Shown here: piece after piece, positions 1-16,018 of the stretch
Layout of the letters: each line of letters begins with the position of its first letter
Position numbering within the stretch: the first letter of the stretch is position 1
Assembly: GCA_964549685.1 (NCBI GenBank)
Contig: CAZJVE010000002.1
Span: 79,520-143,519, forward strand
DNA length: 64,000 nucleotides
Source: an uncultured archaeon
GTDB taxonomy: Archaea > Altiarchaeota > Altiarchaeia > IMC4 > QMZM01
Reading direction: 5' to 3'
Made by a program: the position numbers and the translations under genes
The notes under the pieces: generated by a model
What the model saw: only the letters and a program-made list of their open reading frames with translations
What the model was told of the DNA's origin: nothing
Database searches by the model: none

Positions 1-567
1 GGGGCAAAACCGGCATTCCTTGAAGCCAACATCTCGTGCCCCAACGTGGAGCATGAATTCGGCAGCGCCTTCGGAACGGACCCCGGGGCAGCTTCAAGGA
101 TAACGGCAGAGATTAAGAATTCAACCAAAATCCCCCTGATAGTCAAACTGACCCCCAACGTTACTTCTATCCGAGATATTGGAAGGGCCGTTGCCGATGC
201 GGGAGCAGATGCAATCACAGCCATAAACACCTACGGCCCCGGAATGGCAATAAATGCAGAGACTGGAAAGCCCGTTCTCACAAACAAATTCGGGGGGCTG
301 TCGGGCCCTGCCATGAAGCCCATAGCATTGCGATGCGTCTACGAGCTCTACGAGGAGGTGAAGATTCCCATCATAGGCACGGGTGGAATCCAGACAGGCA
401 AGGACATGGCCGAGATGCTGATGGCCGGAGCTTCAGCATGCGGCATTGGAACCGCAATAATGGACCGCGGCATAGAGGCATTCTCCGAAATCTGCAGGGA
501 GCTGGAAGAATTCATGGACAAAAACGGGCATTCCAAGGCCACGGATTTAATCGGAATGTCACACTAG
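1..567 (+). CDS. pyrD: dihydroorotate dehydrogenase (class 1B-type catalytic subunit), C-terminal part; 5' end lies outside the window
   Basis: Frame is open from base 1. Motifs IVKLTPNV, GGLSGPAMKPIALR and IIGTGGI are typical of the PyrD FMN barrel. Confidence 0.85.
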   Translation, partial: GAKPAFLEANISCPNVEHEFGSAFGTDPGAASRITAEIKNSTKIPLIVKLTPNVTSIRDIGRAVADAGADAITAINTYGPGMAINAETGKPVLTNKFGGLSGPAMKPIALRCVYELYEEVKIPIIGTGGIQTGKDMAEMLMAGASACGIGTAIMDRGIEAFSEICRELEEFMDKNGHSKATDLIGMSH

Positions 568-1250
568 CCTGAGTTAATCCAGTCATTTATTATGTCTAGA
601 AGGTCGCTGCTGTCTATCTCTCCGCTGGCCCACCGGTTTATCGCATTCACTATCTCGTCCAGCGTCACCTCGCCGTCGCTGTTTTCATCCGCCGGGAGCC
701 CGGAGGCAATATCCACTGAAACGTCCCCGTCTATATCTGCTGTAACCTCAGATTCGGTGTCCGGGTCTATGTACGTGTATTGCCCCGCAATCTCCACGGT
801 GCCGGACGCATTCTCCGGCACGCCGACAGTATATGTGATATTCCTCGTATAGAAGTTGGATGAGAACAACAGCCATTTAATCTCCCCTGTTTCGGTGTCA
901 TGGGAGGTGTATGCCGGGCTGGGGCCGGTAGCGCTCCATCCCGGGGGAATGTATTCATTAATGGTAACGGCGTTCGGGGGGCTGTCCCCTTTGACAACAA
1001 GCAGGGTTACCTCGAGGCCGGTTTCAGGCGATGCCGAGGATGGCAGCTCCCTGCTCACGGCCACGGTCGTTGCAACAGAACCCGGCGGCCCTGGCGGAAG
1101 CGGATATGCAGTAGTCGTTGTCGTAACGTCATCCGGAGGCGCCGGCGGAGTCATAAGTGTCAGTAAGCCGATTATGGTCGGCTTGAAGACCGCTATTGAC
1201 GCGAGAAAAATAAAAATCAGAATCGCCATATGGAGAGGCTGCGCTTTCAT
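564..1250 (-). CDS. small secreted/anchored protein with C-terminal dockerin-like module
   Basis: N-terminal hydrophobic segment MAILIFIFLASIAVF, a Pro/Thr linker, a beta-sandwich-like middle (INEYIPPGW...GEIKW...YTVGVPENASG), and a C-terminus DENSDGEVTLDEIVNAINRW...LLDIINDW. Confidence 0.7.
   Translation of the reverse strand: MKAQPLHMAILIFIFLASIAVFKPTIIGLLTLMTPPAPPDDVTTTTTAYPLPPGPPGSVATTVAVSRELPSSASPETGLEVTLLVVKGDSPPNAVTINEYIPPGWSATGPSPAYTSHDTETGEIKWLLFSSNFYTRNITYTVGVPENASGTVEIAGQYTYIDPDTESEVTADIDGDVSVDIASGLPADENSDGEVTLDEIVNAINRWASGEIDSSDLLDIINDWINSG
567..689 (-). other. dockerin-like C-terminal module, copy 1 of 6
   Basis: DENSDGEVTLDE has EF-hand/dockerin loop spacing (D1, N3, D5, G6, E12). 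It is followed by helix IVNAINRW and a second loop-less helix LLDIINDW. Confidence 0.6.
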
Positions 1251-1314
1251 TATTTATAATTAGATGCAGCCCGATAAATACATAACTTTTAAGCCGTCAG
1301 TATAAATATTTTCT

Positions 1315-2439
1315 ATGTTCGATGAGCTCTACAGTTCTATGGTGAAGAAAGCGGACTACCGGGCCCTGATGTTTGTCCCGCCAGTCATCGCAATTCTTCT
1401 TCTCCTATTAATCCTGGTAAACGGCATCCCCCTTGGAATAGACTTCAGAGGAGGCACATGGATTGAGGTTTCTAGCAACAGCGAGATTCCCGCAGGCACT
1501 CTGAATTCCCTGGAATCCGAGCTTATATCTGCAGGGCTCGAGAACCTCAAGATACAGTCGGGCAGGGAGACCGGGACAGGAATATACAAAACCTACATCG
1601 AGACAACCACCGAGGTGGACGAGGAGGCAATCAGACCGATACTCGAGAGGAGCTTTGGCGAACTCAGCGACATAGATTCTGCGACCGTTACACTCTCCGG
1701 CGAGATTCCCTTTGACCTTGCGGACAACCTGAGGTCGAGAATTCCCGGAGTTGATGTTGAACTGGACGAGAATTCGTCCGTTCTCAGGGTATCTGCAATC
1801 GAACTTGATGCAGAGGAACTGGAGAGCGCAATTGAATACTATCTCGGCTATGACGTTTCCATGGAATTTCAGTCGAAGAACTTCAACAGCAGGAGGGTCG
1901 GAGCCACTCTGGGCTCAAGGTTCCGGGACCAGGGCCTCAACGCCCTTCTTTACGCCTATCTCCTTATAATTCTGGTGGTCTTCGTTGCCTTCAGGGACTT
2001 CATCCCATCCATTACCGTTATTCTGGCCGCGACCCTTGACGGTGTGATAGCTGCCGGGGGAATGGCACTCTTTGGAATCATTCTCGAGCCCGCATCTCTC
2101 GTCGCAATCCTTATGCTTGTCGGTTACTCTGTTGATACCAACATTCTCCTGACGACCCGGGTTCTGCGTGGGAAGTTCGGCACAATCAATGAAAGGATAG
2201 ACGATGCCATGAAGACCGGCCTTACCATGTCGGCAACCACTATCCTGGTAATGGCGGTCATACTATTTGTGTCAAGCGAGGTGTTCAGGATATCGACGCT
2301 GAGCAGCATAGCCGCAGTCCTTCTCATAGGCCTTATCGGCGACCTGGCAACGACCTGGCTCATGAACGCAGGAATCCTCAAGTGGTACGTGGAGGAGAAG
2401 AGAGGCAAACTCCGGCTCTTCAGGAGGGGCAGAAGATGA
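1315..2439 (+). CDS. secF: protein-export membrane protein SecF
   Basis: GIDFRGGTWIEV motif, an extracytoplasmic head, and six C-terminal TM helices. Its stop overlaps the secD ATG (ATGA). Confidence 0.85.
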   Translation: MFDELYSSMVKKADYRALMFVPPVIAILLLLLILVNGIPLGIDFRGGTWIEVSSNSEIPAGTLNSLESELISAGLENLKIQSGRETGTGIYKTYIETTTEVDEEAIRPILERSFGELSDIDSATVTLSGEIPFDLADNLRSRIPGVDVELDENSSVLRVSAIELDAEELESAIEYYLGYDVSMEFQSKNFNSRRVGATLGSRFRDQGLNALLYAYLLIILVVFVAFRDFIPSITVILAATLDGVIAAGGMALFGIILEPASLVAILMLVGYSVDTNILLTTRVLRGKFGTINERIDDAMKTGLTMSATTILVMAVILFVSSEVFRISTLSSIAAVLLIGLIGDLATTWLMNAGILKWYVEEKRGKLRLFRRGRR

Positions 2440-3992
2440 GCACACTCAAGAGCGTGAGGGTCTGGGTGATGATAACGGCAGTGACACTGTCCTTACTAAT
2501 GGTTTCCAACATAATCCCCATGAACAAAGGGGAAGAAATTGCCTTCGGGAACGGCCTCGACTACGGCCTCGACTTTGCGGGAGGCATTCAGATGCAGCTC
2601 AAGCTGGAGCGGCCCCTGGACGATGCCAATACCATGGCAGTCGAGAAGGGAATCCTCGAGAACAGGCTGAATGCGATGGGGCTGAAGGACATCGTGATAA
2701 GGCCCTGGGGCAACCAGTATATCCTCCTTGAGATAGCGAGCGCCTCTCCAAGCGACGTGAAGAGGATAGAGGACATACTGAAGCAGCAGGCGAGATTCGA
2801 GGCACGGATAGACGGAGAGGTTGCAATCAGCGGCTCAGATATAAGCATCGACCTCAGCCCGGAAGGAAGGGGCGTAAGCAGGTCGGAGCCGTCCGAATGG
2901 TACGTCGCAATAAAAAACAGCATGGCCGGCGGAGAAAGCTTCTGCCGCGTAGGGAAAAACAAGAGGAACAAGCCGATAGACATGTTCCTCGACAGGCCGG
3001 AAAACACGTTCTTCCTGATGGACAACGGAACCTACTCGATACTGAAAGACCTCAGGGGCAGGGACCTGGCCAGCTACATAAAGATTATAGAGAACCGTTC
3101 CGTAATCCCCGTCGTGGTTGCCCTGAACGATACCCTGAACATGAGTGAGGTATCCTCCCTCAAGGAGTCGGGCTTTGACAGGGCGATGATTCTGGAGGAG
3201 GAGGACCGGGTGTCCAACCGGCTGAGGAACGAGCTGGAGGAGAACGGCATAAAGACCGAGAGAAGGGCCAAGGGCAACGAAAGCTACGAGGAGTGGGTCA
3301 TGGACATAATCGGCCTTCAATCCTCCCCGGTACTGAGGTGCGACCCCTGCTCCCAGTGCAAGTACAGCGCAATCATAACCGGGCAGGCATCAACCTACCA
3401 GGAGGCCGAGGCGGATATGAGGAGCACGCAGATACTCCTTGGCTCAGGGAACCTCCCGGCAAAGGCGACAATCGAGTCAAAGTCCGAGGTTCCGGCATCG
3501 TTAGGTGGAGAGTTCCTGAGATACAGCTTCATAATCGGAATCCTGGCAGTCTTTACCGTCGCTTTGGTTGTATTCCTTAGGTACAAGAGGCCGGAGATGG
3601 TCGTTCCAATAATGATGACCTCGCTCTCGGAGATAATCATCATCCTGGGCGTTGCCTCGTTGATAAGCTGGGAGCTCGACCTTCCCGCGGTTGCCGGAAT
3701 CATAGCTGCAGTGGGAACCGGAGTCGACCACCAGATAATCATCACCGATGAAAGCATAAGCAGGAGGCACAGCGAACAAAAGAAGAAGCTCGTAAGCATC
3801 GTTGAGAGAATAAAGAGGGCGTTTTTCATAATATTCGTTTCGGCGGCAACAACGATTGCCGTGATGATACCTGTATTCCTGATACAGTCGCTGAAGGGCT
3901 TTGCGTTAACAACGGCGGTAGGCGTATTCATCGGGATAATAATAACCCGGCCGGCTTACGCCAAGATAATAGAGGGGATTCTGAAAAGATAG
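2436..3992 (+). CDS. secD: protein-export membrane protein SecD
   Basis: Start placed at ATG 2436 (MSTLKSVRVWVMITAV, TM helix) inside the longer track ORF. GLDFAGGIQMQL motif, large external domain, C-terminal RND-like TM bundle. Confidence 0.85.
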   Translation: MSTLKSVRVWVMITAVTLSLLMVSNIIPMNKGEEIAFGNGLDYGLDFAGGIQMQLKLERPLDDANTMAVEKGILENRLNAMGLKDIVIRPWGNQYILLEIASASPSDVKRIEDILKQQARFEARIDGEVAISGSDISIDLSPEGRGVSRSEPSEWYVAIKNSMAGGESFCRVGKNKRNKPIDMFLDRPENTFFLMDNGTYSILKDLRGRDLASYIKIIENRSVIPVVVALNDTLNMSEVSSLKESGFDRAMILEEEDRVSNRLRNELEENGIKTERRAKGNESYEEWVMDIIGLQSSPVLRCDPCSQCKYSAIITGQASTYQEAEADMRSTQILLGSGNLPAKATIESKSEVPASLGGEFLRYSFIIGILAVFTVALVVFLRYKRPEMVVPIMMTSLSEIIIILGVASLISWELDLPAVAGIIAAVGTGVDHQIIITDESISRRHSEQKKKLVSIVERIKRAFFIIFVSAATTIAVMIPVFLIQSLKGFALTTAVGVFIGIIITRPAYAKIIEGILKR

Positions 3993-4037
3993 GCCCATTT
4001 TTTATTCTCGATTACTATTCTTAATATCACTCCAAAA

Positions 4038-4358
4038 ATGAAAGAACTCGAACAGATAAAGAAGGTCGAGGAGACGGTTGAAAAGTCCGTTGAGAAGGCT
4101 AGGAAGGATGCTGAGAAGAGGATTAACGACCTGAGGGCGAGCAGGGGCACGAGACTGGAAAAGGCCAAGGAAAGCGCCGAGAAGAGCATGGACAAGAAGA
4201 TAAAGGGCGCGAAAGAGAAGGCCGATGGCGAGGCAAAAAGGCTAAACTCAGGGGTTGCCGGCGAGATATCCGAGCTTGAGAAACAGACCAAGAAGAATTT
4301 TAACAGTGCAGTTGACTTTATCGTGGACGAGTTCTCAAGGATAGGGGGCGGCGATTAA
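4038..4358 (+). CDS. atpH: A-type ATP synthase peripheral-stalk subunit H
   Basis: 106-aa charged coiled-coil protein (MKELEQIKKVEETVEKSVEKARKDAEKRI...) lying directly upstream of subunit E. Confidence 0.6.
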   Translation: MKELEQIKKVEETVEKSVEKARKDAEKRINDLRASRGTRLEKAKESAEKSMDKKIKGAKEKADGEAKRLNSGVAGEISELEKQTKKNFNSAVDFIVDEFSRIGGGD

Positions 4359-4360
4359 AA

Positions 4361-4903
4361 ATGGCCTTTGAAAAAATCGAGAGCAAAATCAAGGAAAAGG
4401 GCAATGAAGAGGTTAAGGGAATCAAAGGCGAAGCCAAGAAAGAGATAGATGGCATAGAAAAGGACATAAAGACCGGGGAGGAAAAGGCCAACAAGAAGGT
4501 CATGGACAAGAGAAAACAGGAGTTCGAACTAATCCCGAAGAGAATAATCTCAAACGCCAGGATGGAGAGGAAGCTCCAGGTGGATTCAAAGAAGGCGGAG
4601 ATAGTCCACAACGTCTTCGAGAGCGCGAAGAAAAAGATTCTCGACATGGACAGCAAGAAGAAGGAAAAGCTTCTGAAGAGCCTTGCCGAGGATGCAAAGA
4701 AGAGCGTCAGGGACCCGGTGCTCTACGTTGACAAGAAATACGCAAAGTTCATTGATGCAAAGGCCAAGGACATCGGCGATTTTGGTGTAATTGTCGAGAG
4801 CAAGGACGGCTCCATGAGAGTCGACAATACCCTGGACAACCTGATGCTCAGAATGGAGCCCGACCTCAAGGCCAAGGTCGGCGGGATTCTATTTGGGGAC
4901 TAA
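4361..4903 (+). CDS. atpE: A-type ATP synthase peripheral-stalk subunit E
   Basis: 180 aa. N-terminal long charged helix and a C-terminal globular part (GVIVESKDGSMRVDNTLDNLM) typical of A/V-ATPase subunit E. Confidence 0.7.
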   Translation: MAFEKIESKIKEKGNEEVKGIKGEAKKEIDGIEKDIKTGEEKANKKVMDKRKQEFELIPKRIISNARMERKLQVDSKKAEIVHNVFESAKKKILDMDSKKKEKLLKSLAEDAKKSVRDPVLYVDKKYAKFIDAKAKDIGDFGVIVESKDGSMRVDNTLDNLMLRMEPDLKAKVGGILFGD

Positions 4904-4914: not shown

Positions 4915-7900
4915 CTATGTGCAAAGAGGGATATCTGCTGTATCCATCCCCATATACGGTGAGAAGCACGTATCCGAGTCATAGTCGTCTATGCAGCCAT
5001 CCTGATTCAGGTCATGGCTTGAAGTATAACCTGGATCGCCCGCGCATAAGTCCAGGCTTATTTGCATCGACAAATAATCAGCATAATCAACCTCTGCATC
5101 GCCGTTTAGGTCTGGACACAGCACGCATCCCGTAGCAATGCTCGTAGTTGTTAGGGTGGTGCTTGTCGTAGTGCTCGAAGCCCCGCTACTCCACGCGTTT
5201 ATCAGGTCTATTACATCCGCCAGATTCGCCTGGTCATTGGACCAGAGAGTTATCAGGTCTATCACTTCTGAGAGACTCACGTCACCACAGGGTGCGCTGT
5301 CGCCAACCAGAGTGCAGTCCCCCGATATTGTTGTGCTGGTGCTTGTCGTAGTTGTGGTTGTAGCGCCCTCCTCGGCACATTCTATCTTGGATACATTGAC
5401 CCCCCACACCGTGATGGAGCCGTCCGAGTCAAAGACGAACTTCATGTCGTCCGTTTCATAGTACTCGGTCCAGTTGTAGTCCCCCCCGCTCCAGGTGCCG
5501 TCTATCGTATCCAGGCTGGAGCCCTCGCCCGTTTTTATGTAGAGGTAGTCGTACCCCGACTCCGTAATCGCCTTCATATATGCCCTCATTGACGAGCCGG
5601 AGCTGCATTGATATTCATAGGAGGCGCAGTCCAGGTAATTCGAATACGGGTGCGGCGTTTCGAATGCTATGCTATGCTGCCCCAGGCCAAAGGAGCCGCC
5701 CGAATCCATGCTGCAGCCCGATGCGATGGTGGACGTGGTCAAGACCGTCGTCGTGCTCGTTGATGTGGATGTTGTCGATGTGGTTGTTGTGCCATTTATT
5801 GATGTCGATGTTGAGCTCGTGGAGGTGCTGCTTGTTGATGTGCTGCTGCTAGTGGATGTAGACGTCGTGGTAGTCCCGGTAACCGTAACCGCGGCATTGC
5901 TACTCCTTACTGTCTGAAGTTGCGGGTTTCCGCTGTTGTAGGTCCTTATATCTACGGTGTCAAGCGTTATGTTGCTGACTCCTGCACCTATCGCCTCGAA
6001 TTTCGCGGACGCTATGCCGGTCCCGGAAGAAGATATGCCGTCCGTCGACCTGACTCTCAGGTACTGCACCGTCCCCTGGGTATTGTTTATGGTCGGTCCG
6101 ACATCGGTATATGCGGTTGAGCTATCCGCAGTCAGGAAATCCCCTATCGTTAGCGAGGTGGCGTTCAGGACGTCCGGGTCAAAGCCGAGATGAATCTCCA
6201 CGCTGTATGCATCTGAAAGCTGGCTGCTGTTAATCTCGACGGAGAAGGTGTCTCCAGCCACGGCGGCTACGCTCGAGGGGTCGATGCTCACGTCCAGCAG
6301 GATTGTGCTTGTGGTGCTCGTCGACGAGGTGCTGGTCGTGGTCGTCTGGTTTGTTATGCTTGTGGTGGTCGACATTGACGTGCTGGTAGAGGTCGTAGTG
6401 CTCGTGGACGTGGTAACAACGCTGCAGTCATACGTGCATCCGGCCGTCCCGCTGTCGCTCCAGGTGCTCGGGTTGTCGCACGTATTCTCGTCCCCTGAAT
6501 TCCCCGATGTGGTGCCTGAAAACTTGAAGTCTGACTCCGTATTACCGCAGATTCGGTTCGAATCCACGTCATTGAACATCGAATCATGGAAGCGGATTCC
6601 GTTCGTGTTGTTGGATATGGTGTTGTTGGCGATTGTGTTACTGGAGGAGCTGCTGAAAGAGATTCCCTTGTCGAAGTCCGTGATGATGCAGTTCCTTATC
6701 TTGTTGCTGGCCCTGAGGTGCATGTAGATTCCGGTGCCGGAGGTGTCCCCGTCCCCGTCAATTTTGTAGTTCTGGCAGTCGAAGATTATGCCGCTCTCGC
6801 CGAACGTAATGCAACTGCCGTCCTGGTCGGTTATGTCCGCGCCGAGGTTCACGGTCGAATAGGTGCCGTCCAGCTTCGTGGTGCAGTCCGCACAGGAGGT
6901 GCAGGTATTCCCTGTCGATACGGTCGTTGTCGTTGAGGTCAAGCTCGTGCTTGTAGATGTTGACGTGCTCGTCGATGTACTGGTCGAGGTGGATGTCGAC
7001 GTCGTGCTACTACTACTGGTCGTCGTAGTGCCAGACGTAACGACGCTGAATGCAAGGTCGTCATCATCTCCGTAGGTTCCGGTATAGCAGCTGCTTCCGC
7101 CACCCCACTTCCAGCCGATTATCGCCCTCACGTATTGGGTGCTACTGGCGTCATCCACGGTAAAGCTCGTGGAGTAAGTTCCTGTGGTTCCGGGGTAATC
7201 GCACTGGGAGTCTATAAGGAGCACTCTCCAGCCAGTGCCGTTATAATACCATATCTCTACTCTGTCATTGGAATCATAGCACTCCACCAGGACCTCCACG
7301 TTAACGGTGTCCCCCGCATTCACTCCGCAGGAGGAGCCCACGTTCGTAAGGGTAATCCCCTCTATGTCGTCCTCGCCGTTGCAGCTCGCCGCCCCGGCGC
7401 AGGAATCCGCCAGGATATTGTCGGTGCAGCCGTTGCTCCCAAGGCACGCGCTCCCGCACTGGCACTGCGTAACTACGGTTGAGGTCGTGCTTGTAGAGCT
7501 AGTAGTTGATGTTGTCGTGCTGGTAGAAGACGTGCTGCTGGACGTTGTCTGGGTTATCGTGCTAGTGGTGCTGGTCGAACTCGTGCTAGTGGTGCTGTAG
7601 CAGTTAATCGTCTCGACATCGATGCCCCAGTCTGTTTGAGAACCGTCGGATGTGAACCTGAACTGGATGCTCCTCGTGTTGGGGTGCTCCCTCCATACGT
7701 AGCCCTGTGAATCCCCGCACCAGTACGTGCTTGTGCCGGTGTCGGCGTTTATTATGTAGAACTTGTCATAATTGCACGTGGAATGGTACTCAATATCGTG
7801 CTTTACATAGACCTTTCCGTAGTAGCTGGATGGGCAGGTATAGGTGTTCGAAGAGCAATCCATGTTGTTGGGATAAGTGTGCGGGGTCTGGAAATCGATT

Positions 7901-10230
7901 GTATTGTCCCCGGCGCTCAGGCTTGCTGATGCAGAGGAGGTACACGACAGGATAGAGGTCGTGGTCGAGGTTGTCGTGGATGTGGTGGTTGTACTTGAGG
8001 TAGAGCTTGAGGAGGGGCAGTCCGCCTCGCAGTTGCCCGTGGTCTCGGCATTTGTAGCAGAGGAATCGCAGGTGCCGTCGCCGCAGTATTTCAGCTCATA
8101 GGTGAAGTCGAACAGCTCACCGCCGCCGTCTTCATATACATGGGCCGCAATGCTTATATCGCAGCCGGAAGAGCAGTACTCTTTACTGGTTATGTCGTTC
8201 CATGCATCGCTGTCCGCGCTGCCCGTGCACGTGGTGGCACAGCCCCCCACGTAATTCGTTCCGCTGCAGTTCCCGCCTTCGTAGAGATCCGGGCTGGAGG
8301 ATTCGTCGTTGTTGGAATCAATCCAGAGCTTATAGCCGTCGTCGGATGCGACCCTGTAGCTCAGATTGGCCAACCGCCCCGGGACATTAATGGTCTTCCT
8401 GTAGAATTTATCGCAGTGGTCGCAGTTCTCGTCCCACTCGTCTTTCAGGTCCACGTCGCTCCAGCAGGAGTCGTCATAGTTGAGCTCGTACCAGTAGTCA
8501 TAGCCGCCGTCCCTCATGACCTCGTTATCGGAATACTCGTCGCACTGGTCGTTGTCCGCGTCGTATCTCACCGCCTTCCAGCCGCACCTCGGGTCTGTGG
8601 GATTCGTCAAGCACCAGGACTTCGAGTTCGTGACGGTGCCTACGCACTCCCCGTTGCAGCTAGCCCACCTCGTGGAATCGTTAACCGCGCAGTCGCTTCC
8701 GTCTATGGTGCCATCATCATCACAGTCGGAATCCTCGGGGCACGGGTCGTTCATGTTGGAGAGGCCGTCGCTGTCCAGGTCCGTGGAGTACGAGGTGTCG
8801 GTGTTTATCATCTCGTGGTTAGAGGCGACGGCATAGTACTCAAAGCCGTTCTCCAGTGTGTAGGGGTAGGGGACCCCCACCCTGAGCCAGTATATTCCGT
8901 TCTCGCTGACCTGGTAATGGACGTGCTCCACGTTGTTCTTGGTGCTTCTCGAGGAGCTTATGAGGTTGTAATCGCCGTCGTAGAGGTAAAGATTAAAGTT
9001 GGTCAGGGATGCCGGGGTTCCTTTATAGCTCGAGACGTTGCGCCTCCAGACAAGCGTTGCCGTGATATTGGCGGGGGCGTCAGTCACGTAGACCTTATGG
9101 TACCTGTCGGTTGTGTCAGAGGCCAGTCTGGCATGCAGCTTGTAGCCTGACGGCTCCGTTGTCGCCCTGCTACTGTAGGTTGCGAGCGCCTCCACCGCGT
9201 CCACGAGCCCCGCCCCCTGCCACTGGTCCAGGGGGTCGGTGGTTGTATGCGACCAGCCACTCAGCTTCGTTGCAGAGTTCATGATTGCGGCCTTCATAAG
9301 GACCGGGTCGTTCGTCTGGCTATTCGTCTCAGCCCAGCTGAAGAGAAGCGCTGCCACGCCCGAGACGTGGGGGGTGGCCTGGCTGGTGCCTGTCCTGGGC
9401 GCGATGCTGTCTTCGGTTTCCCAGTCATTGTTGGACGACCATATCTCCTTCCCCGGCGCCACAACATCGACCGTCGTTCTGCCGTCGTCCGTCTTGCCGT
9501 GGCCGCTCTCGTTGTCCGGAGAACAGCTATCAGCATCACTACAACTTAGCACTGAGCCCACGGTAATGGCGTTGTAGTTGTCCCCCGGCGCCTCGATGTG
9601 CGAGTCCGGATTGTGCGTCTGGTCCCAGTTGCCTGCAGCGGTGACGAAGATGGTATCTCTCCCATACGATATATAGTCCACGAGTTGCGTCAGGTTAGAG
9701 CTGCCTGTCGTGCTCAGTTCGTCATAGTAGCGGCCCTGGCTCAGGCTGATTATCTCTGCGCTATTCGGGTAGTCTATGGCCCAGTTAATCCCGGCATAGA
9801 GGTAATCCCAGAGCCCAAATGCGGTTGAGGCCTGGACGTCTATTATCCCGGCGTAGGGTGCCACTCCCTTGTAGCTGCTGTCCTGGCTGACGATAATCCC
9901 TGCGACGTGGGTCCCGTGCCCCTCAATGTCCCCCTCGTGCCCGTCGGGGTCCGTGTTATTGTAGAAACTCCCCCAGTTGAGGACGGCGTTGATGTCGGGG
10001 TGGCTCCTGTCAATTCCTGTGTCGACGACCGCCACCGTGGTAACTAGTCCTCCGGACGTATTATCCTGGATTTCATCTGCTCTGATTAGGGATACTGACT
10101 CAATCAGACTTGTCTTGATTCCGCCTTCATCAGACACGTCGCCGGCATCTTCAACACCGACAACACCGCAGCTAAGAACCAATATACTGACTGCAAGAAT
10201 GAATAAAACACCCTGTTTCATTTTATTCAA
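4915..10230 (-). CDS. giant secreted multidomain S8 subtilisin-like serine protease (1771 aa)
   Basis: Signal peptide MNKMKQGVLFILAVSILVLSC and S8 triad motifs VAVVDTGID, HGTHVAG, GTSQATPHVSG. Downstream order: P/PPC-like domain, TSP3-like Asp-rich Ca repeats, PA14-like, CUB-like, beta-helix (PbH1), cohesin-like, second CUB-like, dockerin-like module, then a canonical dockerin. Domains are separated by Thr/Ser linkers. Confidence 0.9.
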   Translation of the reverse strand: MNKMKQGVLFILAVSILVLSCGVVGVEDAGDVSDEGGIKTSLIESVSLIRADEIQDNTSGGLVTTVAVVDTGIDRSHPDINAVLNWGSFYNNTDPDGHEGDIEGHGTHVAGIIVSQDSSYKGVAPYAGIIDVQASTAFGLWDYLYAGINWAIDYPNSAEIISLSQGRYYDELSTTGSSNLTQLVDYISYGRDTIFVTAAGNWDQTHNPDSHIEAPGDNYNAITVGSVLSCSDADSCSPDNESGHGKTDDGRTTVDVVAPGKEIWSSNNDWETEDSIAPRTGTSQATPHVSGVAALLFSWAETNSQTNDPVLMKAAIMNSATKLSGWSHTTTDPLDQWQGAGLVDAVEALATYSSRATTEPSGYKLHARLASDTTDRYHKVYVTDAPANITATLVWRRNVSSYKGTPASLTNFNLYLYDGDYNLISSSRSTKNNVEHVHYQVSENGIYWLRVGVPYPYTLENGFEYYAVASNHEMINTDTSYSTDLDSDGLSNMNDPCPEDSDCDDDGTIDGSDCAVNDSTRWASCNGECVGTVTNSKSWCLTNPTDPRCGWKAVRYDADNDQCDEYSDNEVMRDGGYDYWYELNYDDSCWSDVDLKDEWDENCDHCDKFYRKTINVPGRLANLSYRVASDDGYKLWIDSNNDESSSPDLYEGGNCSGTNYVGGCATTCTGSADSDAWNDITSKEYCSSGCDISIAAHVYEDGGGELFDFTYELKYCGDGTCDSSATNAETTGNCEADCPSSSSTSSTTTTSTTTSTTTSILSCTSSASASLSAGDNTIDFQTPHTYPNNMDCSSNTYTCPSSYYGKVYVKHDIEYHSTCNYDKFYIINADTGTSTYWCGDSQGYVWREHPNTRSIQFRFTSDGSQTDWGIDVETINCYSTTSTSSTSTTSTITQTTSSSTSSTSTTTSTTSSTSTTSTVVTQCQCGSACLGSNGCTDNILADSCAGAASCNGEDDIEGITLTNVGSSCGVNAGDTVNVEVLVECYDSNDRVEIWYYNGTGWRVLLIDSQCDYPGTTGTYSTSFTVDDASSTQYVRAIIGWKWGGGSSCYTGTYGDDDDLAFSVVTSGTTTTSSSSTTSTSTSTSTSTSTSTSTSTSLTSTTTTVSTGNTCTSCADCTTKLDGTYSTVNLGADITDQDGSCITFGESGIIFDCQNYKIDGDGDTSGTGIYMHLRASNKIRNCIITDFDKGISFSSSSSNTIANNTISNNTNGIRFHDSMFNDVDSNRICGNTESDFKFSGTTSGNSGDENTCDNPSTWSDSGTAGCTYDCSVVTTSTSTTTSTSTSMSTTTSITNQTTTTSTSSTSTTSTILLDVSIDPSSVAAVAGDTFSVEINSSQLSDAYSVEIHLGFDPDVLNATSLTIGDFLTADSSTAYTDVGPTINNTQGTVQYLRVRSTDGISSSGTGIASAKFEAIGAGVSNITLDTVDIRTYNSGNPQLQTVRSSNAAVTVTGTTTTSTSTSSSTSTSSTSTSSTSTSINGTTTTSTTSTSTSTTTVLTTSTIASGCSMDSGGSFGLGQHSIAFETPHPYSNYLDCASYEYQCSSGSSMRAYMKAITESGYDYLYIKTGEGSSLDTIDGTWSGGDYNWTEYYETDDMKFVFDSDGSITVWGVNVSKIECAEEGATTTTTTSTSTTISGDCTLVGDSAPCGDVSLSEVIDLITLWSNDQANLADVIDLINAWSSGASSTTTSTTLTTTSIATGCVLCPDLNGDAEVDYADYLSMQISLDLCAGDPGYTSSHDLNQDGCIDDYDSDTCFSPYMGMDTADIPLCT
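4918..5127 (-). other. canonical two-loop dockerin-like domain
   Basis: Two EF-hand-type loops, DLNGDAEVDYAD and DLNQDGCIDDYD, about 30 aa apart at the extreme C-terminus. Confidence 0.55.
5182..5319 (-). other. dockerin-like module, copy 2 of 6 (internal position)
   Basis: DCTLVGDSAPCGDVSLSEVIDLITLWSNDQANLADVIDLINAWSSG. Confidence 0.6.
5377..5715 (-). other. CUB-like domain 2
   Basis: CSMDSGGSFGLGQHSIAFETPHPYSNYLDC...YDYLYIKTGEG...MKFVFDSDGSITVWGVNVSKIEC. Confidence 0.45.
5875..6300 (-). other. cohesin-like domain
   Basis: LLDVSIDPSSVAAVAGDTFSVEINSSQLSDAYSVEIHLGFDPDVLNATSLTIGDFL...GTGIASAKFEAIGAGVSNITL. This parallels the type-I cohesin pattern (V..v.a.pGDTv.v.v.....a..f.l.yDp.vL....i..G.l ... 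G.fa.i.f.a...G...i). Confidence 0.6.
6424..6912 (-). other. right-handed beta-helix (PbH1/NosD-like) module
   Basis: CTSCADCTTKLDG...CITF...FDCQNYKIDGDGD...IRNCIITDFDKGI...NTIANNTISNNTNGIRF. By eye it is closely similar to module 2 of the neighbouring protease (10515..10997). Confidence 0.7.
7600..7947 (-). other. CUB-like domain 1
   Basis: C-x20-FQTPHTYPNNMDC ... TCNYDKFYII ... YWCGD ... IQFRFTSDGSQTDWGIDVE. Four-Cys spacing and the YP..Y..C / C.yD / CG / F.sD.s...G pattern match CUB. Confidence 0.5.
8083..8418 (-). other. PA14-like domain
   Basis: SYRVASDDGYKLWIDSN ... ISIAAHVYEDGGGELFDFTYEL resembles the PA14 hallmarks (sDDG..L.idg ... Y.e.gG.a.l.l). Confidence 0.45.
9196..10053 (-). other. 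S8 peptidase catalytic domain of the 1771-aa protease
   Basis: Asp (VVDTG), His (HGTHVAG), Asn (AAGNW) and Ser (GTSQATPHVSG) motifs in canonical order. Confidence 0.85.
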
Positions 10231-10277
10231 TTAAGGATTGGTTCCAGCACTATAAATCCTTATTGATTCGCTGCTGT

Positions 10278-13200
10278 CTAGCCCGAGGACCAGGCACTTA
10301 TCAGGTCTATCACGTCCGCAAGGCTTGCGCCGTCCGCTGCCCACAGGCTTATCAGGTCGATTACTTCTGCCAGACCCACTTCGCCGCAGGGCGGGTCGTC
10401 TCCTACTAGGTCACAGCCCCCGGATATTGTGGTGCTGGTCGATGTCGTGCTTGTCGTCGTTCCTGCTATTGTCGTAGAGGTACTCGTGCTGGTTGATGTC
10501 GTAGTAGTCGCGCTGCACGCATAGGTGCATCCGGTCGTCCCGTCGTCGCTCCAGTCTCCCGGAATATCGCATGTGTTCTCATCGCCTGAGTTCCCTGAGT
10601 TGCTGCCCGAGAACGAGAAATCAGCCTCGGTGTTGGAACAGACGGTGTTGGAATTCACCGTGTTGTACATGGCGCTCGAGAAACGGATTCCCTCAACGTT
10701 ATTTGATACGGTATTGTTAACAAGGGTGCTGAAAGACGTGGAGCTGAGCAATATCCCCTTGTCAAACCCGGTAATGACGCAGTTTCTTATGGTACTGTCC
10801 GATTTCAAATGCAAATAGATTCCCGTTCCATAATCGTCTCCGTCCCCGTCGATTGTATGGCCCTGGCAGTCGAACTCTATATTGCCGTCGCTGAATGTGA
10901 TGCAGTTCCCGTCCTTGTTCGATATGCTCGCAGTCAGCTGAACCGTGGAGTAGGTCCCGTCCAGCTTCGCGTTGCAGCCGGAGCATGAGCTGCAAGTATT
11001 CCCTGCTGACAATGTGGTGGTGGTCGATGTCGACGTAGTCGAGGTGGTCAATGTGCTGCTGGTTGACGTCGTTGTGCTGGTTGTTGTTGCGCCGGCGCAG
11101 GTATAGCTGCATCCCGTAACTCCTGTGTCGTTCCATCCAGCTACCGTGTCGCAGCTATTCTCGTCGCCGGAATTATCCGTGCCGTTGGCGAAGTAAAAAT
11201 CCTCCTGCGTGTTGGAGCAGAAGCGGTTCGAACTTATGGTGTTGTTATCGGAGTTATAGATGCGGATTCCGTTTATGCCATTGGACTGTGCGGTGTTTGC
11301 CGTAATTGTATTATTGTCGGCTGATGTCCCAACGAACATTCCCTGCCAGGTGTTCGAGTTCATGGTGTTGTTGGTTATCGTGTTGTAGCTGCCGCCGACA
11401 TAAATCCCCCGGTATGTGTTGGAGTTTGCGGTGTTGTTGGCGATGGTATGGTAGTCGGACAGGAGAGACAGGTATATTCCGCCGTCGTTGTTTGATGCGT
11501 TGTTGTCCGTAATCGTGGCGCCGTCTGAATAGTATACATAAATCCCATTCCCGCTGTTTGAGGTTAGGGTGTTGTTCAAAATGGTGTTGTTGTTCGAGCC
11601 ATAGAGGTAGATGCCGTCTGAGAAACCAGTAATTATGCAGTTCCTCACGGTGTTGTTGTCTTTATAGAGCATGAATATTCCGTCATTTATGCCCGAACTG
11701 TCAATTGTATAGCCCTGGCAGTCGAACTCGACGTTGTCGGAATTGAAGGTGATGCATCTGCTGGGGTAATCTGTTATGTTCGTGGTCAGCTTAACCACAG
11801 TGTAGTTCCCGTCGAGCTTGTTGCTGCAATCCTCGCATGAGCTACAGGTCGTTTCCAACTGCCATGCGCTTGAGTTCAACGGATAATAATCTGCAGTATT
11901 ATTCACTCCGTCCCCATCACAATCAGTGCAGTAGGTCAGGTCATAGTCCAGCATCGGCTTGTTGCTGGCGAGAGCATAGTATTCGAAGCCGTTCTCCAAG
12001 GCACCGCCATAGACATCGACGTTGAGCCAGTATATCCCGTTCTCAGTGGCCTCATAGTAAACGTGCTCCACATTGTCCTTGTTGCTCGCGGACCAGTTGA
12101 GCATCTCGTTCATGTCTCCGTCATAAAGATAGAGGTCGAAGTCCGTCAAATCTGCAGGAGTAAGATTGTAGTTGGTAACATTCCTCCTCCAGACAATGGT
12201 TGCCGTGATGTTCGTCGGGGCATCGTCCACATAGACTCGGGTATACCTGTCCGAGGCATTGTAGACAAGCCTTGAGTGCAGCAGGTAGCCCGTGGGGTCT
12301 GTCGACGGCCTGCTTATATAAGTCCTGTATGCATCAACGGCATTCAGAAGCCCGGCCCCCTGCGTCCTGTCCAGGGGCTCAAGGTGTGTATGGCTCCATC
12401 CCGACAGCTTCGTCGCAGAGTTCATGATTGCGGCCTTCATAAGGACCGGGTCATTCGTTTTCGAATTCAAATCTCCCCAGTGGAAGAGCATTGCAGCAAC
12501 CCCCGACACATGGGGCGTTGCCTGGCTCGTTCCGCTCTTCGTGGTATAATCGTCTATCTCCTCAGGCCAATCGCTCCAGTTATAGTTGCAGGACCATATG
12601 TCGTCCCCGGGCGCCAGGACGTCTATCTTCGTCCTGCCGTCATCCGTTACATTCCTTCCGCTGTCACTGTCCAGGGCCAGGCCCTTTGTCACCGAACCCA
12701 CCGTGATTCCGTTATAGTTGTCCCCCGGAGCCTCGATGTGCGAATCTGGATTGTTCGTCGAGTCCCTGTTGCCTGCGCAGACTATGAACGGAGTATTCCT
12801 CTGATATGCGATGTAATCCACGAATTTTGTAAGCTCAAAATTGCCTGTCGTGCTGACCTCGACATAGGACCGTGCCTGGCTCATGCTTATTATGTTCGCG
12901 CCGTTGTCTATGGCCCAGTTCACTCCCGCATAGAGGTATTTCACTGCGTCATCCAGCTCCGTTATCGAGGCCTTCACGTTTATTATGTCTGCATTCGGAG
13001 CCACCCCTGGGTAAAGGTCGTCCTGGCTCGCGATAATGCACGCGACATGCGTTCCGTGTCCCTGAATATCCTCGGTGCTCCCGTCGGGGTCCGCATCGGT
13101 ATAGAAGTTCCCTCCATTAACAAGATTATTATCGATAGCGGGGTGCGTGCTGTTGACTCCCGTATCTACGACAGCGACCGTAGCCAGAGAAGCCCCCGAT

Positions 13201-13367
13201 ACGTTGCTCGTAATCTCATCGGCCCTGATAAGCCCCACGGAATTATCCAGGGCGGTCTTGATTCCTCCCCTGGACGCATCGTTGGAGTTCTCGGCACTGA
13301 AAGCACCGTAGCTCAGGACTATCAAACAAACCAGAACAAATAAGTTCCTGTTTTTCATCTTAATCAA
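10278..13367 (-). CDS. secreted S8 subtilisin-like protease with two beta-helix modules and a dockerin-like C-terminus (1029 aa)
   Basis: Signal peptide MIKMKNRNLFVLVCLIVLSYGAFS and triad motifs VAVVDTGVN, HGTHVAC, GTSQATPHVSG. The N-terminal ~470 aa are clearly paralogous to the 1771-aa protease. Two PbH1 modules (11097..11846 and 10515..10997). Confidence 0.9.
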   Translation of the reverse strand: MIKMKNRNLFVLVCLIVLSYGAFSAENSNDASRGGIKTALDNSVGLIRADEITSNVSGASLATVAVVDTGVNSTHPAIDNNLVNGGNFYTDADPDGSTEDIQGHGTHVACIIASQDDLYPGVAPNADIINVKASITELDDAVKYLYAGVNWAIDNGANIISMSQARSYVEVSTTGNFELTKFVDYIAYQRNTPFIVCAGNRDSTNNPDSHIEAPGDNYNGITVGSVTKGLALDSDSGRNVTDDGRTKIDVLAPGDDIWSCNYNWSDWPEEIDDYTTKSGTSQATPHVSGVAAMLFHWGDLNSKTNDPVLMKAAIMNSATKLSGWSHTHLEPLDRTQGAGLLNAVDAYRTYISRPSTDPTGYLLHSRLVYNASDRYTRVYVDDAPTNITATIVWRRNVTNYNLTPADLTDFDLYLYDGDMNEMLNWSASNKDNVEHVYYEATENGIYWLNVDVYGGALENGFEYYALASNKPMLDYDLTYCTDCDGDGVNNTADYYPLNSSAWQLETTCSSCEDCSNKLDGNYTVVKLTTNITDYPSRCITFNSDNVEFDCQGYTIDSSGINDGIFMLYKDNNTVRNCIITGFSDGIYLYGSNNNTILNNTLTSNSGNGIYVYYSDGATITDNNASNNDGGIYLSLLSDYHTIANNTANSNTYRGIYVGGSYNTITNNTMNSNTWQGMFVGTSADNNTITANTAQSNGINGIRIYNSDNNTISSNRFCSNTQEDFYFANGTDNSGDENSCDTVAGWNDTGVTGCSYTCAGATTTSTTTSTSSTLTTSTTSTSTTTTLSAGNTCSSCSGCNAKLDGTYSTVQLTASISNKDGNCITFSDGNIEFDCQGHTIDGDGDDYGTGIYLHLKSDSTIRNCVITGFDKGILLSSTSFSTLVNNTVSNNVEGIRFSSAMYNTVNSNTVCSNTEADFSFSGSNSGNSGDENTCDIPGDWSDDGTTGCTYACSATTTTSTSTSTSTTIAGTTTSTTSTSTTISGGCDLVGDDPPCGEVGLAEVIDLISLWAADGASLADVIDLISAWSSG
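10281..10415 (-). other. dockerin-like module, copy 3 of 6
   Basis: GCDLVGDDPPCGEVGLAEVIDLISLWAADGASLADVIDLISAWSSG. Confidence 0.6.
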
Positions 13368-13396
13368 TTAAGAATTAATCACGGGGCTATAAATTC

Positions 13397-16018
13397 TTAT
13401 TGGTTCGCCCAGTTATCGATGGCATCGATTACGTCAGCCAATTCGGCCTCCTCGTTCTGCCAGAGGTTTATGATATCTATGACCTCTGCCAGGCTCACCT
13501 CCCCATCGCAGTCAGAATCGCCCGTTAGACACACTATCGTCGTGCTCGTGGACGTGGTGCTGGTCGAGGTGGTCGTGGTTAGCACTGTCATGCTCAGGTC
13601 CCATTCTACTGGTATGAAGTTCTGCTTCGTTACTGTGAGGTTCATGGAGTCGTTGCCGGCGACGGTTACCTGAAGCGCCGCATCGCCCGAGGAATTGGTG
13701 TAGGCATTGGCGTATGAGCCCGAGTTCTGCAGGCAGACCCTCGCATCCTCGACAGGGCCGGCTGAACCGTTAACGGAAACCACTATTGAATTCTCCCCCA
13801 GATAAATCTCGCTGGGGAATTCCACGGTGAAATTCTCCGGGACCGAGGTCCATATCGGAACCTCAGGGTCTCCCAGGAGGTTGTAGTCCGCAAAGTTCTT
13901 CTTCGAGGCATCTCCGCCGCCCCATCCCTCATCCGTTGGCCACTGGTTGACGTAATACCATCTCTTCATGTCCGCCAGCGTCTTCCCCGGCTGATGGCTT
14001 CCGTTGATGAACTGCTCGAAGAACCTGTAAACCAGCTCCTGGTTGAAGCCGTCGCCAAGGACCCATCCCTGCGTGTAGTAGCTGGTCCTTGTGGCCCCCA
14101 CATAGCCGATGGCCCAGTTCTTCAGCACCTCGTTGCCGAGAGAGCCTGTCTGGTCGAATGCCCCGGTTAAACAGGAATCTGCATAGACAAGCGGCAGCAT
14201 CCCGCCGTTTGCAGGGTCCGTCCCGGTATCTACAAAGGCGTCGCATGTCTGGCACGGTACCGACACGGTATATAGCCCGTGGCCTGACCAGGTTACAAGG
14301 GAATTCCCATAGCCTGCATAGGTCTCAAAATTGGAATATGTGAGTGCAGCATCCCTGTCGTACGTGCTGGAATGATACAGTCTGTAATTCGAGAAATTCC
14401 CCGGTTCCAGTAAATCAGCCCTGACCAGCTCCATCAGATAGGCATCGTCAGTGGTGTCGTCGGATACCCCTCCCGCAAGAACCGCCCTCGAGAACCACTC
14501 GCTGCTGTTCGTGGGCGGTGATTTCTCATAGCTGATTATGGCACTGACAAGGCTCTCAATCTCCGTTGCTGTTGATACCGGCAGCCTCCCGACGTAGACG
14601 TCGGGAATCCAGTCCGTTACCTCGTCCCCGACCCCGGTGTGTTCATTCTCTCCATAGTTGGAGTCCCAGTCGCTATTCCAGTCCCCGCCAAGGCAGCTAT
14701 AGTAGTAGTCGGTCGGCACACTATCCTCGTCGCCTTCATACCAGTCCCTGCTCACTCTCAACGAGGGGACCTGGCTGTCCGAGCCTGCAAGAAGAACCCA
14801 TTCCGCCCCCTCGCTGTATCTGTCGATGATGAAATCCCTAATCATCTTCTGCGGTGGATTCTCATGGGAATTCAAATCCATTGCACTGAAGCCGGAAACG
14901 GTCCAGTTGGTGGTTGAATTCCCCTCCGCCAGGAAGAGAACTTCCTGGTCCGTAACTACAGAAACATTGTCCAGCCACCAGCCGCCGAAGCTGACGTAGG
15001 TGTCGGTAACATAGTAGAACCTAAGGTAGATTTCCTCCCCGGCGTAGCTGTCCATGTTTATAGTATCCTGCACCCAGGAGCTGTTCCCGGTATAGGCATA
15101 GGCGCCCTCCGTCCCTACATAGGCCTCCGGCTCCCGGTAGTCGGTCATCTGCCCGCCCTGCAGTTGGGTCCAGTTTTCTCCATTGCTTGAGACCTCGATG
15201 TAGCCAAAGTCCCAGCCCTTCTCGACCTTGAATTTTGTCATGAGCGTCAGCTTCGCAGTGGTTGCATTGCTCAGGTTCAGTGTTCTCTGCATATAGTTGC
15301 TCTGGTCGTTGCCTGTCCCAGAATGGAAAACATAGTTCTCGGTTCCGTTGTAGCTCTGATAAATCCACTGCACGGTATATATCTCTGCTGGAACGCCCTT
15401 CTTCGTCTTCCATTCCTTCAATGGCTCCAGGGAAGAGTTCAAAGAGGAGTCGGTTATTATCAGATACTTCGTTGCGTTGGAGACAGTAAGTGTGCCCACC
15501 TTTCTCTTCTTCGGGAGTTCGTATTCAAGGCGTAGCGAGACCCTCCTATGGAAGAGCAGGCTGCCACCACTATATTGCAGCGGGAAGATTGAGACCGATA
15601 CCAGCTTGTGGTCCTTAAAACCATCGATAATCCAGAAGGAATAGACGTCTTCTGGGAACAGAAGGGACTGACCACCTGCCGTTTTAAGCGCCGGGGGATT
15701 CCCCCCTGTAGTCATGATTACGGGCTGCTTCGACAGGACAAGGCCATCGACCTCGCCGAGGGATTCCGTTTCTGTGTCCTCCAGAATTACCTGAATATTC
15801 ATAGCATCCCGGGGAATTTCCACGAACTCTCTCTTCATGGGTAGCCTTGGTTCATTGGGAATGGCTGTAAAATCAAGGCCCGGAATCTCATACTGGATTC
15901 CCTCATCGCTCTGGAATGCCGTCGGCTCCTGGAACTCAAAATCCAGATGCGTGCTCTCGGCCGAGACCGAGGCCGAAAGAAGGAAAAGCAACAGCAGCGC
16001 TCCAAACCTGTTCGACAT
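13397..16018 (-). CDS. secreted C25 (gingipain-like) cysteine protease with inserted MAM/InhA-like beta-sandwich and dockerin-like C-terminus
   Basis: Start moved to ATG 16018 (MSNRFGALLLLFLLSASVSA signal peptide). LIITDSSL...LKEWKTKKG, VYVGRLPV, catalytic-type WSGHG and YADSCLTG. Insert GWDFGYIEVSSNGENWTQL. C-terminal Thr linker plus module. Confidence 0.75.
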   Translation of the reverse strand: MSNRFGALLLLFLLSASVSAESTHLDFEFQEPTAFQSDEGIQYEIPGLDFTAIPNEPRLPMKREFVEIPRDAMNIQVILEDTETESLGEVDGLVLSKQPVIMTTGGNPPALKTAGGQSLLFPEDVYSFWIIDGFKDHKLVSVSIFPLQYSGGSLLFHRRVSLRLEYELPKKRKVGTLTVSNATKYLIITDSSLNSSLEPLKEWKTKKGVPAEIYTVQWIYQSYNGTENYVFHSGTGNDQSNYMQRTLNLSNATTAKLTLMTKFKVEKGWDFGYIEVSSNGENWTQLQGGQMTDYREPEAYVGTEGAYAYTGNSSWVQDTINMDSYAGEEIYLRFYYVTDTYVSFGGWWLDNVSVVTDQEVLFLAEGNSTTNWTVSGFSAMDLNSHENPPQKMIRDFIIDRYSEGAEWVLLAGSDSQVPSLRVSRDWYEGDEDSVPTDYYYSCLGGDWNSDWDSNYGENEHTGVGDEVTDWIPDVYVGRLPVSTATEIESLVSAIISYEKSPPTNSSEWFSRAVLAGGVSDDTTDDAYLMELVRADLLEPGNFSNYRLYHSSTYDRDAALTYSNFETYAGYGNSLVTWSGHGLYTVSVPCQTCDAFVDTGTDPANGGMLPLVYADSCLTGAFDQTGSLGNEVLKNWAIGYVGATRTSYYTQGWVLGDGFNQELVYRFFEQFINGSHQPGKTLADMKRWYYVNQWPTDEGWGGGDASKKNFADYNLLGDPEVPIWTSVPENFTVEFPSEIYLGENSIVVSVNGSAGPVEDARVCLQNSGSYANAYTNSSGDAALQVTVAGNDSMNLTVTKQNFIPVEWDLSMTVLTTTTSTSTTSTSTTIVCLTGDSDCDGEVSLAEVIDIINLWQNEEAELADVIDAIDNWANQ
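13400..13534 (-). other. dockerin-like module, copy 4 of 6
   Basis: VCLTGDSDCDGEVSLAEVIDIINLWQNEEAELADVIDAIDNWANQ. Confidence 0.6.

Follow-up and report, generated by a model that had tools for sequence, protein, structure and literature searches.

A 46-residue module on proteases and other exported proteins of an altiarchaeon: a candidate dockerin-like docking tag

Exported proteins that share a small module

The 64,000 nucleotides analysed here, which we call the window, stem from an uncultured archaeon of the Altiarchaeota (contig CAZJVE010000002.1, positions 79,520 to 143,519, of assembly GCA_964549685.1) and encode three proteases, S8a, S8b and C25, which share a module of 46 amino acids (aa) with other exported proteins of the same stretch. 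This module is the subject of the present work. The Altiarchaeota, which are abundant in the subsurface and have not been cultivated, have an unusual cell surface, and we know of no account of how they place enzymes outside the cell. A preliminary description of the window, made without database searches, had proposed an island of dockerin-tagged proteases. The three genes described there are indeed consecutive, follow one another in the same orientation on the minus strand and code for proteins with signal-peptide-like N-termini, and the quoted catalytic motifs were all found in the translations: VAVVDTG, HGTHVA and GTSQATPHVSG in both S8a and S8b, and WSGHG and YADSCLTG (the context of the His/Cys catalytic dyad) in C25. 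For a count of the module, a hidden Markov model (HMM) was built from the six copies and scanned over all six reading frames of the window; it found exactly six copies in 64 kb with 74–83 bits, the next best hit having 4 bits, which is the number of carriers reported before. The protease genes, the other carriers and their module copies are as follows.

13397..16018, minus strand: gene of the C25 peptidase (gingipain family), 873 aa from the ATG; signal peptide, InhA-like MAM insert, C25 catalytic domain, immunoglobulin-like (Ig-like) C25_C domain, Thr/Ser linker, module; Pfam Peptidase_C25 174.9 bits
13400..13534, minus strand: module on C25 with a canonical EF-hand-type loop, DSDCDGEVSLAE; HMM 82.6 bits
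10278..13358, minus strand: gene of the subtilase S8b, 1026 aa; signal peptide, S8 domain, two NosD/beta-helix cassettes, Thr/Ser linker, terminal module; Pfam Peptidase_S8 145 bits
10281..10421, minus strand: module on S8b, two-cysteine type (GDDPPCG); HMM 76.5 bits
4915..10221, minus strand: gene of the subtilase S8a, ~1768–1771 aa; signal peptide, S8 domain, Cys/Asp-rich region, two Cys-containing domains of ~115 aa, and further a beta-helix cassette, cohesin, module and canonical dockerin; Pfam Peptidase_S8 150.5 bits
5182..5322, minus strand: module on S8a, GDSAPCG type; HMM 78.0 bits
564..1250, minus strand: carrier p4, 228 aa; N-terminal hydrophobic segment, Pro/Thr linker, Ig-like domain, module (567–695, loop DENSDGEVTLDE; HMM 74.2 bits)
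25968..28187, plus strand: carrier p5; signal peptide, two lamin-tail domains, Thr/Ser linker, cohesin (27309–27698), cupredoxin, module (28038–28175, loop DLDCDGTVGLDE; HMM 77.9 bits)
61649..63034, minus strand: carrier p6; signal peptide, Thr/Ser linker, beta-helix-like repeats, module (61652–61783, loop DENCDGEVTLAE; HMM 83.3 bits)
63067..64000, minus strand: C-terminal 299 aa of a seventh carrier, identical to the C-terminus of the database protein P0036 (1263 aa)

The gene of the seventh carrier crosses the right edge of the window and its module lies beyond it; the whole gene is present in a related metagenomic locus (L017, 340–4131) and codes for two NosD/beta-helix cassettes, an internal module (aa 822–867) and a BNR/beta-propeller-like tail. 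With this protein, the density of carriers amounts to ~7 per 68 kb. S8b is identical to the database protein P0013 and scored 106.6 bits with Pfam NosD and 95.7 bits with Beta_helix, the InhA-like_MAM insert of C25 scored 82.6 bits, and p5 matched LTD (86.3 bits) and Copper-bind (24.7 bits). The scores of the para_beta_helix repeats in p6 were below threshold, and the Ig-like domain of p4 is, judged by the Pfam matches of its homologues, related to NPCBM_assoc/DUF11. The architecture of p5 is unusual, with a Thr/Ser linker of ~120 aa and a plastocyanin/amicyanin-like cupredoxin.

S8a and S8b are paralogues, with a BLASTP identity of 60% over residues 1–472, 63% over the beta-helix cassette and 71% over the module. 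TATA-like boxes were seen by eye ahead of each protease gene and, therefore, a single operon is not required. A near-identical TATA-like element, CCAATAAG[GA]ATTTATAG, lies upstream of S8a (~10240–10275) and of S8b (~13370–13395) on the minus strand, which suggests separate but similar promoters for the two paralogues. The GC content of the protease region (0.53–0.545) equals that of its surroundings and is flat across the region, which rules out a compositional genomic island; in this sense the term island used before does not apply. No close relatives of the C25 protein were found in a metagenome scan. In S8a, the stretch at aa ~490–720 is rich in Asp and Cys and has Ca-loop-like DxDxDG motifs. 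The two ~115-aa domains (aa ~759–875 and ~1502–1620) are without family assignment; they have the pattern [FI]-x-[FT]-P-H-x-Y-x-N-x-x-D-C ... W-G-[IV]-[DN]-V in common, and a BLASTP self-comparison revealed no link between them.

Sequence and predicted structure of the module

The six copies align over 46 residues with 38–57% identity at the amino acid level and 48–69% at the DNA level. The latter shows that the copies are old, and it rules out a recent DNA repeat or an assembly artefact. In five of the six, the module forms the extreme C-terminus of the protein. The exception is S8a, in which the module is internal (aa 1637–1683), with one more Thr/Ser linker and then a canonical dockerin of two loops behind it; the earlier statement that each protease ends in the module thus holds for S8b and C25 but not for S8a.

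The module consists of one EF-hand/F-hand-like loop followed by two duplicated amphipathic helices that form a hairpin. The helix repeat [ST]-L-x-[ED]-V-[IV]-D-x-I-N-x-W occurs twice, with a mean of 6.2 identical residues out of 13 and a BLOSUM62 score of 35, compared with -9 +/- 9 for shuffled sequences. An AlphaFold2 model calculated from an alignment of 87 sequences was very confident, with a predicted local distance difference test (pLDDT) value of 96.5 and a predicted template modelling (pTM) score of 0.75, and has an ordered loop (residues 1–15), a helix (16–27), a turn and a second helix (33–45). Throughout the family, E18 and W26 are invariant and G6, D7, G12, L16, I23, L33, I40 and W43 are conserved to at least 90%, W43, I23 and I40 being nearly invariant.

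Two types of loop were found. In four of the six window copies (C25, p4, p5 and p6) the loop is of the EF-hand type, D-x-[DN]-x-D-G-x-V-x-x-x-E, as in D-S-D-C-D-G-E-V-S-L-A-E, which has the ligand positions 1, 3, 5 and 12 as well as Gly6 and Val8. This likeness is reflected by the Pfam model EF-hand_1 (PF00036) only below its threshold of 25.4 bits: the p4 copy scored best with 19.2 bits, the others had at most 13.7 bits or no match. The copies on S8a and S8b have a two-cysteine loop, C-x-L-x-G-D-x-P-P-C-G. The proportions are the reverse in the family as a whole, where G[DN]xxPC is present in 134 of 151 copies and the EF-hand loop in 10. In the two-cysteine type, ligand positions 3 and 5 are gone and a cysteine is gained in register with the conserved upstream cysteine. 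We infer that the two conserved cysteines form a disulfide staple in place of bound Ca2+.

Distribution, placement and cargo

An exhaustive HMMER search of 1.84 billion representatives of clusters at 50% identity gave at least 537 cluster representatives with the module at E ≤ 1e-3 and 143 at E ≤ 1e-10. A word-index protein search with the 46-aa module, a method ill-suited to short domains, had returned only six fragments of 42–53 aa. Species genomes were scanned with narrow patterns derived from 12 close sequences, using one genome per GTDB species (185,579 species genomes); all 14 genuine loci found in this way are in metagenome-assembled genomes (MAGs) of Candidatus Altiarchaeota/Altiarchaeales/Altiarchaeia. 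A fifteenth match, in a Firmicutes genome (L015), was spurious, being out of frame. With patterns as narrow as these, carriers in other lineages may have escaped the scan. The FtsZ, ValRS and DNA ligase proteins encoded in the window share 90%-identity clusters with proteins from Altiarchaeota MAGs.

Placement was determined in 147 carriers drawn from the best 150 matches: the module is C-terminal in 131 (~89%), N-terminal in 10 and internal in 6. The N-terminal copies directly follow the signal peptide and are themselves followed by a Thr linker. Nine carriers among the best 150 have more than one copy, including tandem doubles, and a signal-peptide-like N-terminus is present in 71 of 104 carriers that look full-length. 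The C-terminal, N-terminal, internal and multi-copy placements show that the module is deployed as dockerins are.

A common domain at the extreme C-terminus of 89% of the copies, on proteins with signal peptides, could also be a signal for sorting or export at the unusual altiarchaeal envelope, recognised by a machinery and then removed or used for covalent attachment, in analogy to the C-terminal domain (CTD) of type IX secretion (T9SS) or to PGF-CTERM and archaeosortase. The module is, as such a signal might be, lineage-restricted and very abundant, a C25-family peptidase is present and this family includes the sortase PorU, and a double membrane has been reported for Ca. Altiarchaeum. However, strict C-terminal signals do not occur N-terminally, internally (6 carriers, as in S8a and P0036) or in several copies, the predicted well-folded helical mini-domain sits behind a flexible linker, and a transmembrane-like hydrophobic stretch was not seen by eye in the module. 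None of the NCBIfam sorting-signal models matched the module, and the C25 protein matched PorU with 37.7 bits against an NCBIfam cut-off of 420. Since N-terminal, internal and tandem copies and the helical fold disfavour a sorting signal, we consider this explanation quite improbable.

The cargo was determined by Pfam in 89 representative carriers. NosD/Beta_helix proteins were by far the largest group (27), followed by GEVED (5), NPCBM_assoc (4), S8 (3), C25 (2) and C1 (1); fucosidase, ice-binding, lactamase_B and other domains were found as well. With peptidases in only 6 of the 89 carriers, and with carriers that are scattered among housekeeping genes and only sometimes clustered, the protease-centred system proposed before was not confirmed. 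One such cluster is in a related locus (L022, JGI 3300009127, 9364–20931), in which four carriers lie within 21 kb, three of them adjacent or nearly so. NCBI names the carriers by their beta-helix repeats only, and the module deserves a family model for annotation. In our literature search we found no paper that links Altiarchaeota to dockerins or to the module motif.

Cohesins, a canonical dockerin and the proposed function of the module

Two of the carriers had been described as containing cohesin-like domains; these are S8a and p5, and Pfam agrees when the segments are analysed in isolation (cut-off of Cohesin, 24.1 bits). Moreover, the C-terminal 70 aa of S8a have two Ca loops with helices and resemble solved dockerins. 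The features in question are:

5875..6309, minus strand: cohesin-like domain in S8a, aa ~1308–1452; Pfam Cohesin (PF00963) 29.6 bits
27309..27698, plus strand: cohesin in p5; Pfam Cohesin 44.5 bits
4951..5118, minus strand: canonical dockerin with two loops (DLNGDAEVDYAD and DLNQDGCIDDYD) at the very C-terminal end of S8a

Whole-protein Pfam scans of S8a and p5 listed neither cohesin, perhaps on account of the long Thr/Ser linkers; domains of Thr/Ser-linker proteins such as these two may thus be under-called in automated annotation. Neither cohesin matched a PDB sequence by phmmer, and for the p5 segment the word-index search, ill-suited to short domain queries, gave no relatives. The S8a dockerin matched the PDB entries 2y3n_B (E = 5.7e-6) and 5lxv_B (E = 0.0048) over both repeats (phmmer) and had 21.9 bits with Pfam Dockerin_1, just below the cut-off of 22.9. 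According to a dockerin HMM it is the sole canonical dockerin of the window, and none was found in ~160 kb of related loci. Its presence means that, besides the module, there is a classical pair of cohesin and dockerin. The canonical dockerin is an equally good candidate ligand for the window cohesins; since there are two cohesins and one canonical dockerin in the window, room is left for a cohesin as partner of the module.

The module itself had been taken for a dockerin from the start. In favour of this, its profile found as best PDB match (hmmsearch) the first repeat of the Ruminococcus flavefaciens ScaA dockerin (5n5p_B), with EF-hand proteins next; the E value was 3.2e-4 when the profile was built from the window copies and 0.0096 when it was built from the family, and the match covers the loop and the first helix only. 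The EF-hand loop in four of six copies, the duplicated helices and the position at protein ends behind Thr/Ser linkers are further dockerin-like traits. The module thus resembles half a dockerin, and plausibly works like one.

With moderate confidence, we read the module as a dockerin-like docking tag for exoproteins, a small extracellular domain characteristic of Altiarchaeota. It would fold independently and sits on a flexible, probably glycosylated Thr/Ser linker, and Thr/Ser-rich linkers of this kind fuse it to many sorts of Sec-exported proteins. Most likely it would work like a dockerin in a non-covalent manner, tethering exoproteins to one another or to a receptor that they share on the cell envelope. 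What the sequences show is the family, its predicted fold, its placement, its distribution and its cargo, whereas stabilisation by Ca2+ or a disulfide, the binding function and the nature of the receptor are inferred. The three proteases would then be ordinary cargo of a lineage-wide system and not a dedicated proteolytic machine, and the cohesin domains might be considered as one candidate for the receptor.

Several results weigh against this reading. The module has no family match in Pfam or NCBIfam, and none of the six modules, scanned in isolation, was matched by Dockerin_1 (PF00404) at a limit as lax as E ≤ 10. A comparison by hhalign with solved dockerins plus the S8a dockerin aligned 18 columns (P = 0.026, probability 1.9%) and was not significant, and the dockerin HMM gave the modules at most 3 bits. 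Foldseek, for which the domain is too small, retrieved from the PDB only generic helical hairpins (E ≥ 1.7), with a dockerin at rank 3 (E = 3) and nothing significant. Dockerins are defined by a profile match and by two tandem F-hand repeats; the module lacks both, having one loop (residues ~7–18) and a 5-residue turn before the second helix, and homology to dockerins is not demonstrated. Relatives of the window cohesins were not detected in the 150 representative carriers or in the loci L001–L015 (~110 kb) by jackhmmer, a weak method for this purpose. Finally, the canonical dockerin beside the module in S8a suggests different partners for the two, and the canonical dockerin, not the module, may be the ligand of the cohesins.

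The same results bear on a strict form of the earlier proposal, in which the module is a true, atypical dockerin that binds the cohesins of S8a and p5 in a Ca2+-dependent, protease-centred complex regulated by a serpin. Such a complex would find two Pfam cohesins, one canonical dockerin and six modules in the window, four of them with an EF-hand loop, and a dockerin as top PDB match; both cohesin proteins also bear the module, which would allow daisy-chaining. But the module is a general tag on carriers of which few are proteases, both S8 loops are without Ca ligands 3 and 5, the dockerin profile comparison is not significant, the jackhmmer search mentioned above revealed no cohesin in further carriers or in the loci, and the serpin lies 24 kb off and is untagged. 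We therefore regard the stricter proposal as rather unlikely.

No conserved partner gene was seen in the carrier neighbourhoods of related loci, which likewise speaks against a docking tag and agrees with two explanations that need no receptor. In the first, the module is an element of self-association (homo- or hetero-oligomerisation): hairpins of different exoproteins would form four-helix bundles with one another, and the secreted proteins would thereby be cross-linked into a matrix or biofilm at the cell surface. The pseudo-symmetric amphipathic helices with their highly conserved surface residues (D, N) and the existence of tandem doubles agree with this as well. On the other hand, the module gave a very confident AlphaFold2 model already as a monomer, with the N-terminal loop ordered, and a natural tandem double gave a pLDDT of 57, a pTM of 0.41 and no confident packing, a result that is uninformative because its alignment held only four near-identical sequences. 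We hold self-association to be improbable. In the second, the module is a non-binding terminus spread by domain shuffling, either a cap stabilised by Ca2+ or a disulfide or a terminus associated with glycosylation or linkers. The module is indeed very small, and nothing but a metal or disulfide site can be read directly from its sequence. A cap is, however, expected to pack on its cargo, whereas here long flexible linkers part the two and the placement relative to the cargo is free (N-terminal, C-terminal, internal or tandem), and the exposed positions of the helices show strong conservation in over 500 clusters with unrelated cargo. Linker separation and conservation disfavour the cap, which we rate as highly improbable.

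Within the docking-tag reading, a more specific version can be put forward tentatively: the module could be the address tag of an Altiarchaeota-specific exoprotein display, a single-loop mini-dockerin, mostly disulfide-stabilised, with a dedicated receptor in the envelope. Candidates for such a receptor would be a protein of the S-layer or of the hami, a component of the outer membrane, or a cohesin-like domain. If true, this would be a new family of compact docking pairs that organises a sizeable share of the exported proteins. A 46-residue relative of dockerins with a disulfide-stabilised loop would be more compact than canonical two-loop dockerins, and such a variant would matter for dockerin evolution and as an affinity pair in protein engineering. 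The tag is present on about one in ten genes of the window and in at least 537 clusters, and gives a direct handle on the exoproteome of the lineage: it would predict which proteins are displayed together, among them beta-helix proteins, S8, C25 and C1 peptidases and glycosidases. The tag also points to a breakdown of extracellular proteins by these archaea.

The serpin and other genes of the window

The serpin that had been noted near the proteases is real, though neither tagged nor close to them:

39923..41572, minus strand: serpin, 549 aa; Pfam Serpin 425.6 bits

It has a lipobox-like signal (LFMGC), an N-terminal extension with two Cys-rich repeats of ~40 aa (CP[DE]...CPDGT...PDCEFAACP) and an inhibitory-type hinge (EEGTEAAAATG), and contains neither the module nor a dockerin. 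Housekeeping genes lie between it and the protease genes, so the association of the serpin with the proteases would be only a loose one and the proposed link is weak.

Three adjacent genes on the plus strand (46580–47461, 47487–48152 and 48200–48727) code for exported proteins with lipobox-like [LMI][SM]GC signals and without the module; among them are a molybdopterin oxidoreductase domain protein, a cupredoxin and a third protein without assigned function. The exported proteins encoded here seem to split into a lipobox class and a module-tagged class. Apart from these, a cold-shock-domain protein (54712–55155, plus strand) has a long acidic tail of Pro/Ala/Glu repeats, and an antisense open reading frame that overlaps its gene is probably a repeat artefact. 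An MtdA-like methylene-tetrahydromethanopterin dehydrogenase (22002–22910, minus strand; Pfam Mpt_N 87.2 bits) is consistent with one-carbon metabolism in the lineage.

Comparison with known systems

Among known domains with a similar use, the T9SS CTD on gingipains is a functional analogue only. Like the module, it recurs at the C-terminus of numerous secreted proteins, C25 peptidases among them, in an organism with an outer membrane, but it is a beta-sandwich of ~80 aa that is strictly C-terminal and cleaved by PorU, whereas the module is a 46-aa helical hairpin that is also found in N-terminal, internal and tandem positions. The EF-hand (PF00036) has the same D-x-D-x-D-G loop with Glu at position 12; in contrast, the module has no entering helix and most of its members are without the ligands. 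In Excalibur-type extracellular Ca-binding motifs, cysteines flank the loop as they do in the module, and the domain scan of the module gave no Excalibur match.

The closest likeness is to dockerins, as exemplified by 5N5P and by the Cel48 dockerin of B. cellulosolvens (2Y3N). These, too, are small domains of secreted proteins, usually C-terminal behind a Thr/Ser/Pro linker and sometimes N-terminal or doubled, in which an EF-hand-like loop of 12 residues runs into a helix and an internal duplication gives two antiparallel, pseudo-symmetric helices. The module differs from them by its length (46 aa versus the 57 positions of the Pfam Dockerin_1 model), its single loop, the two conserved cysteines and Pro-Pro in most members, which are without ligands 3 and 5, and the Trp conserved at the end of each helix (W26 invariant, W43 nearly so).

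Non-cellulosomal cohesin-dockerin pairs in archaea, to which the preliminary description had referred, are established (PMC9012536 and references therein): secreted proteins without a role in cellulose degradation carry cohesins and dockerins in Archaeoglobus fulgidus and in ANME (anaerobic methanotrophic) archaea, and according to the same paper, which cites Peer 2009, Bayer 1999 and Haimovitz 2008, a single cohesin is often combined with a dockerin in one protein while large scaffoldins are mostly absent. S8a has just such a cohesin and canonical dockerin. The dockerins of those systems are recognisable by Pfam, whereas the abundant tag described here is shorter and has so far been found only in Altiarchaeota genomes.

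The combination of proteases, docking domains and a serpin had not been recognised as a described system, but bacterial cellulosomes are known to contain S8 peptidases, cysteine peptidases and serpins that bear dockerins (PMC12484212): an S8 protease of C. thermocellum with a double dockerin, a cysteine peptidase of R. flavefaciens with an X-dockerin, and the serpin PinA. There, as may be the case here, docking modules tether S8 and cysteine peptidases, with serpins in the same organism. These systems are bacterial, use canonical dockerins and have dockerin-bearing serpins, whereas the serpin of the window lies far from the proteases and bears no tag, and the tag for its part is not specific to proteases. 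In sum, the combination of protease, dockerin and serpin is not new in kind. New is the tag itself, which has no model in the family databases searched: a 46-residue, single-loop, mostly two-cysteine module that appears specific to Altiarchaeota.

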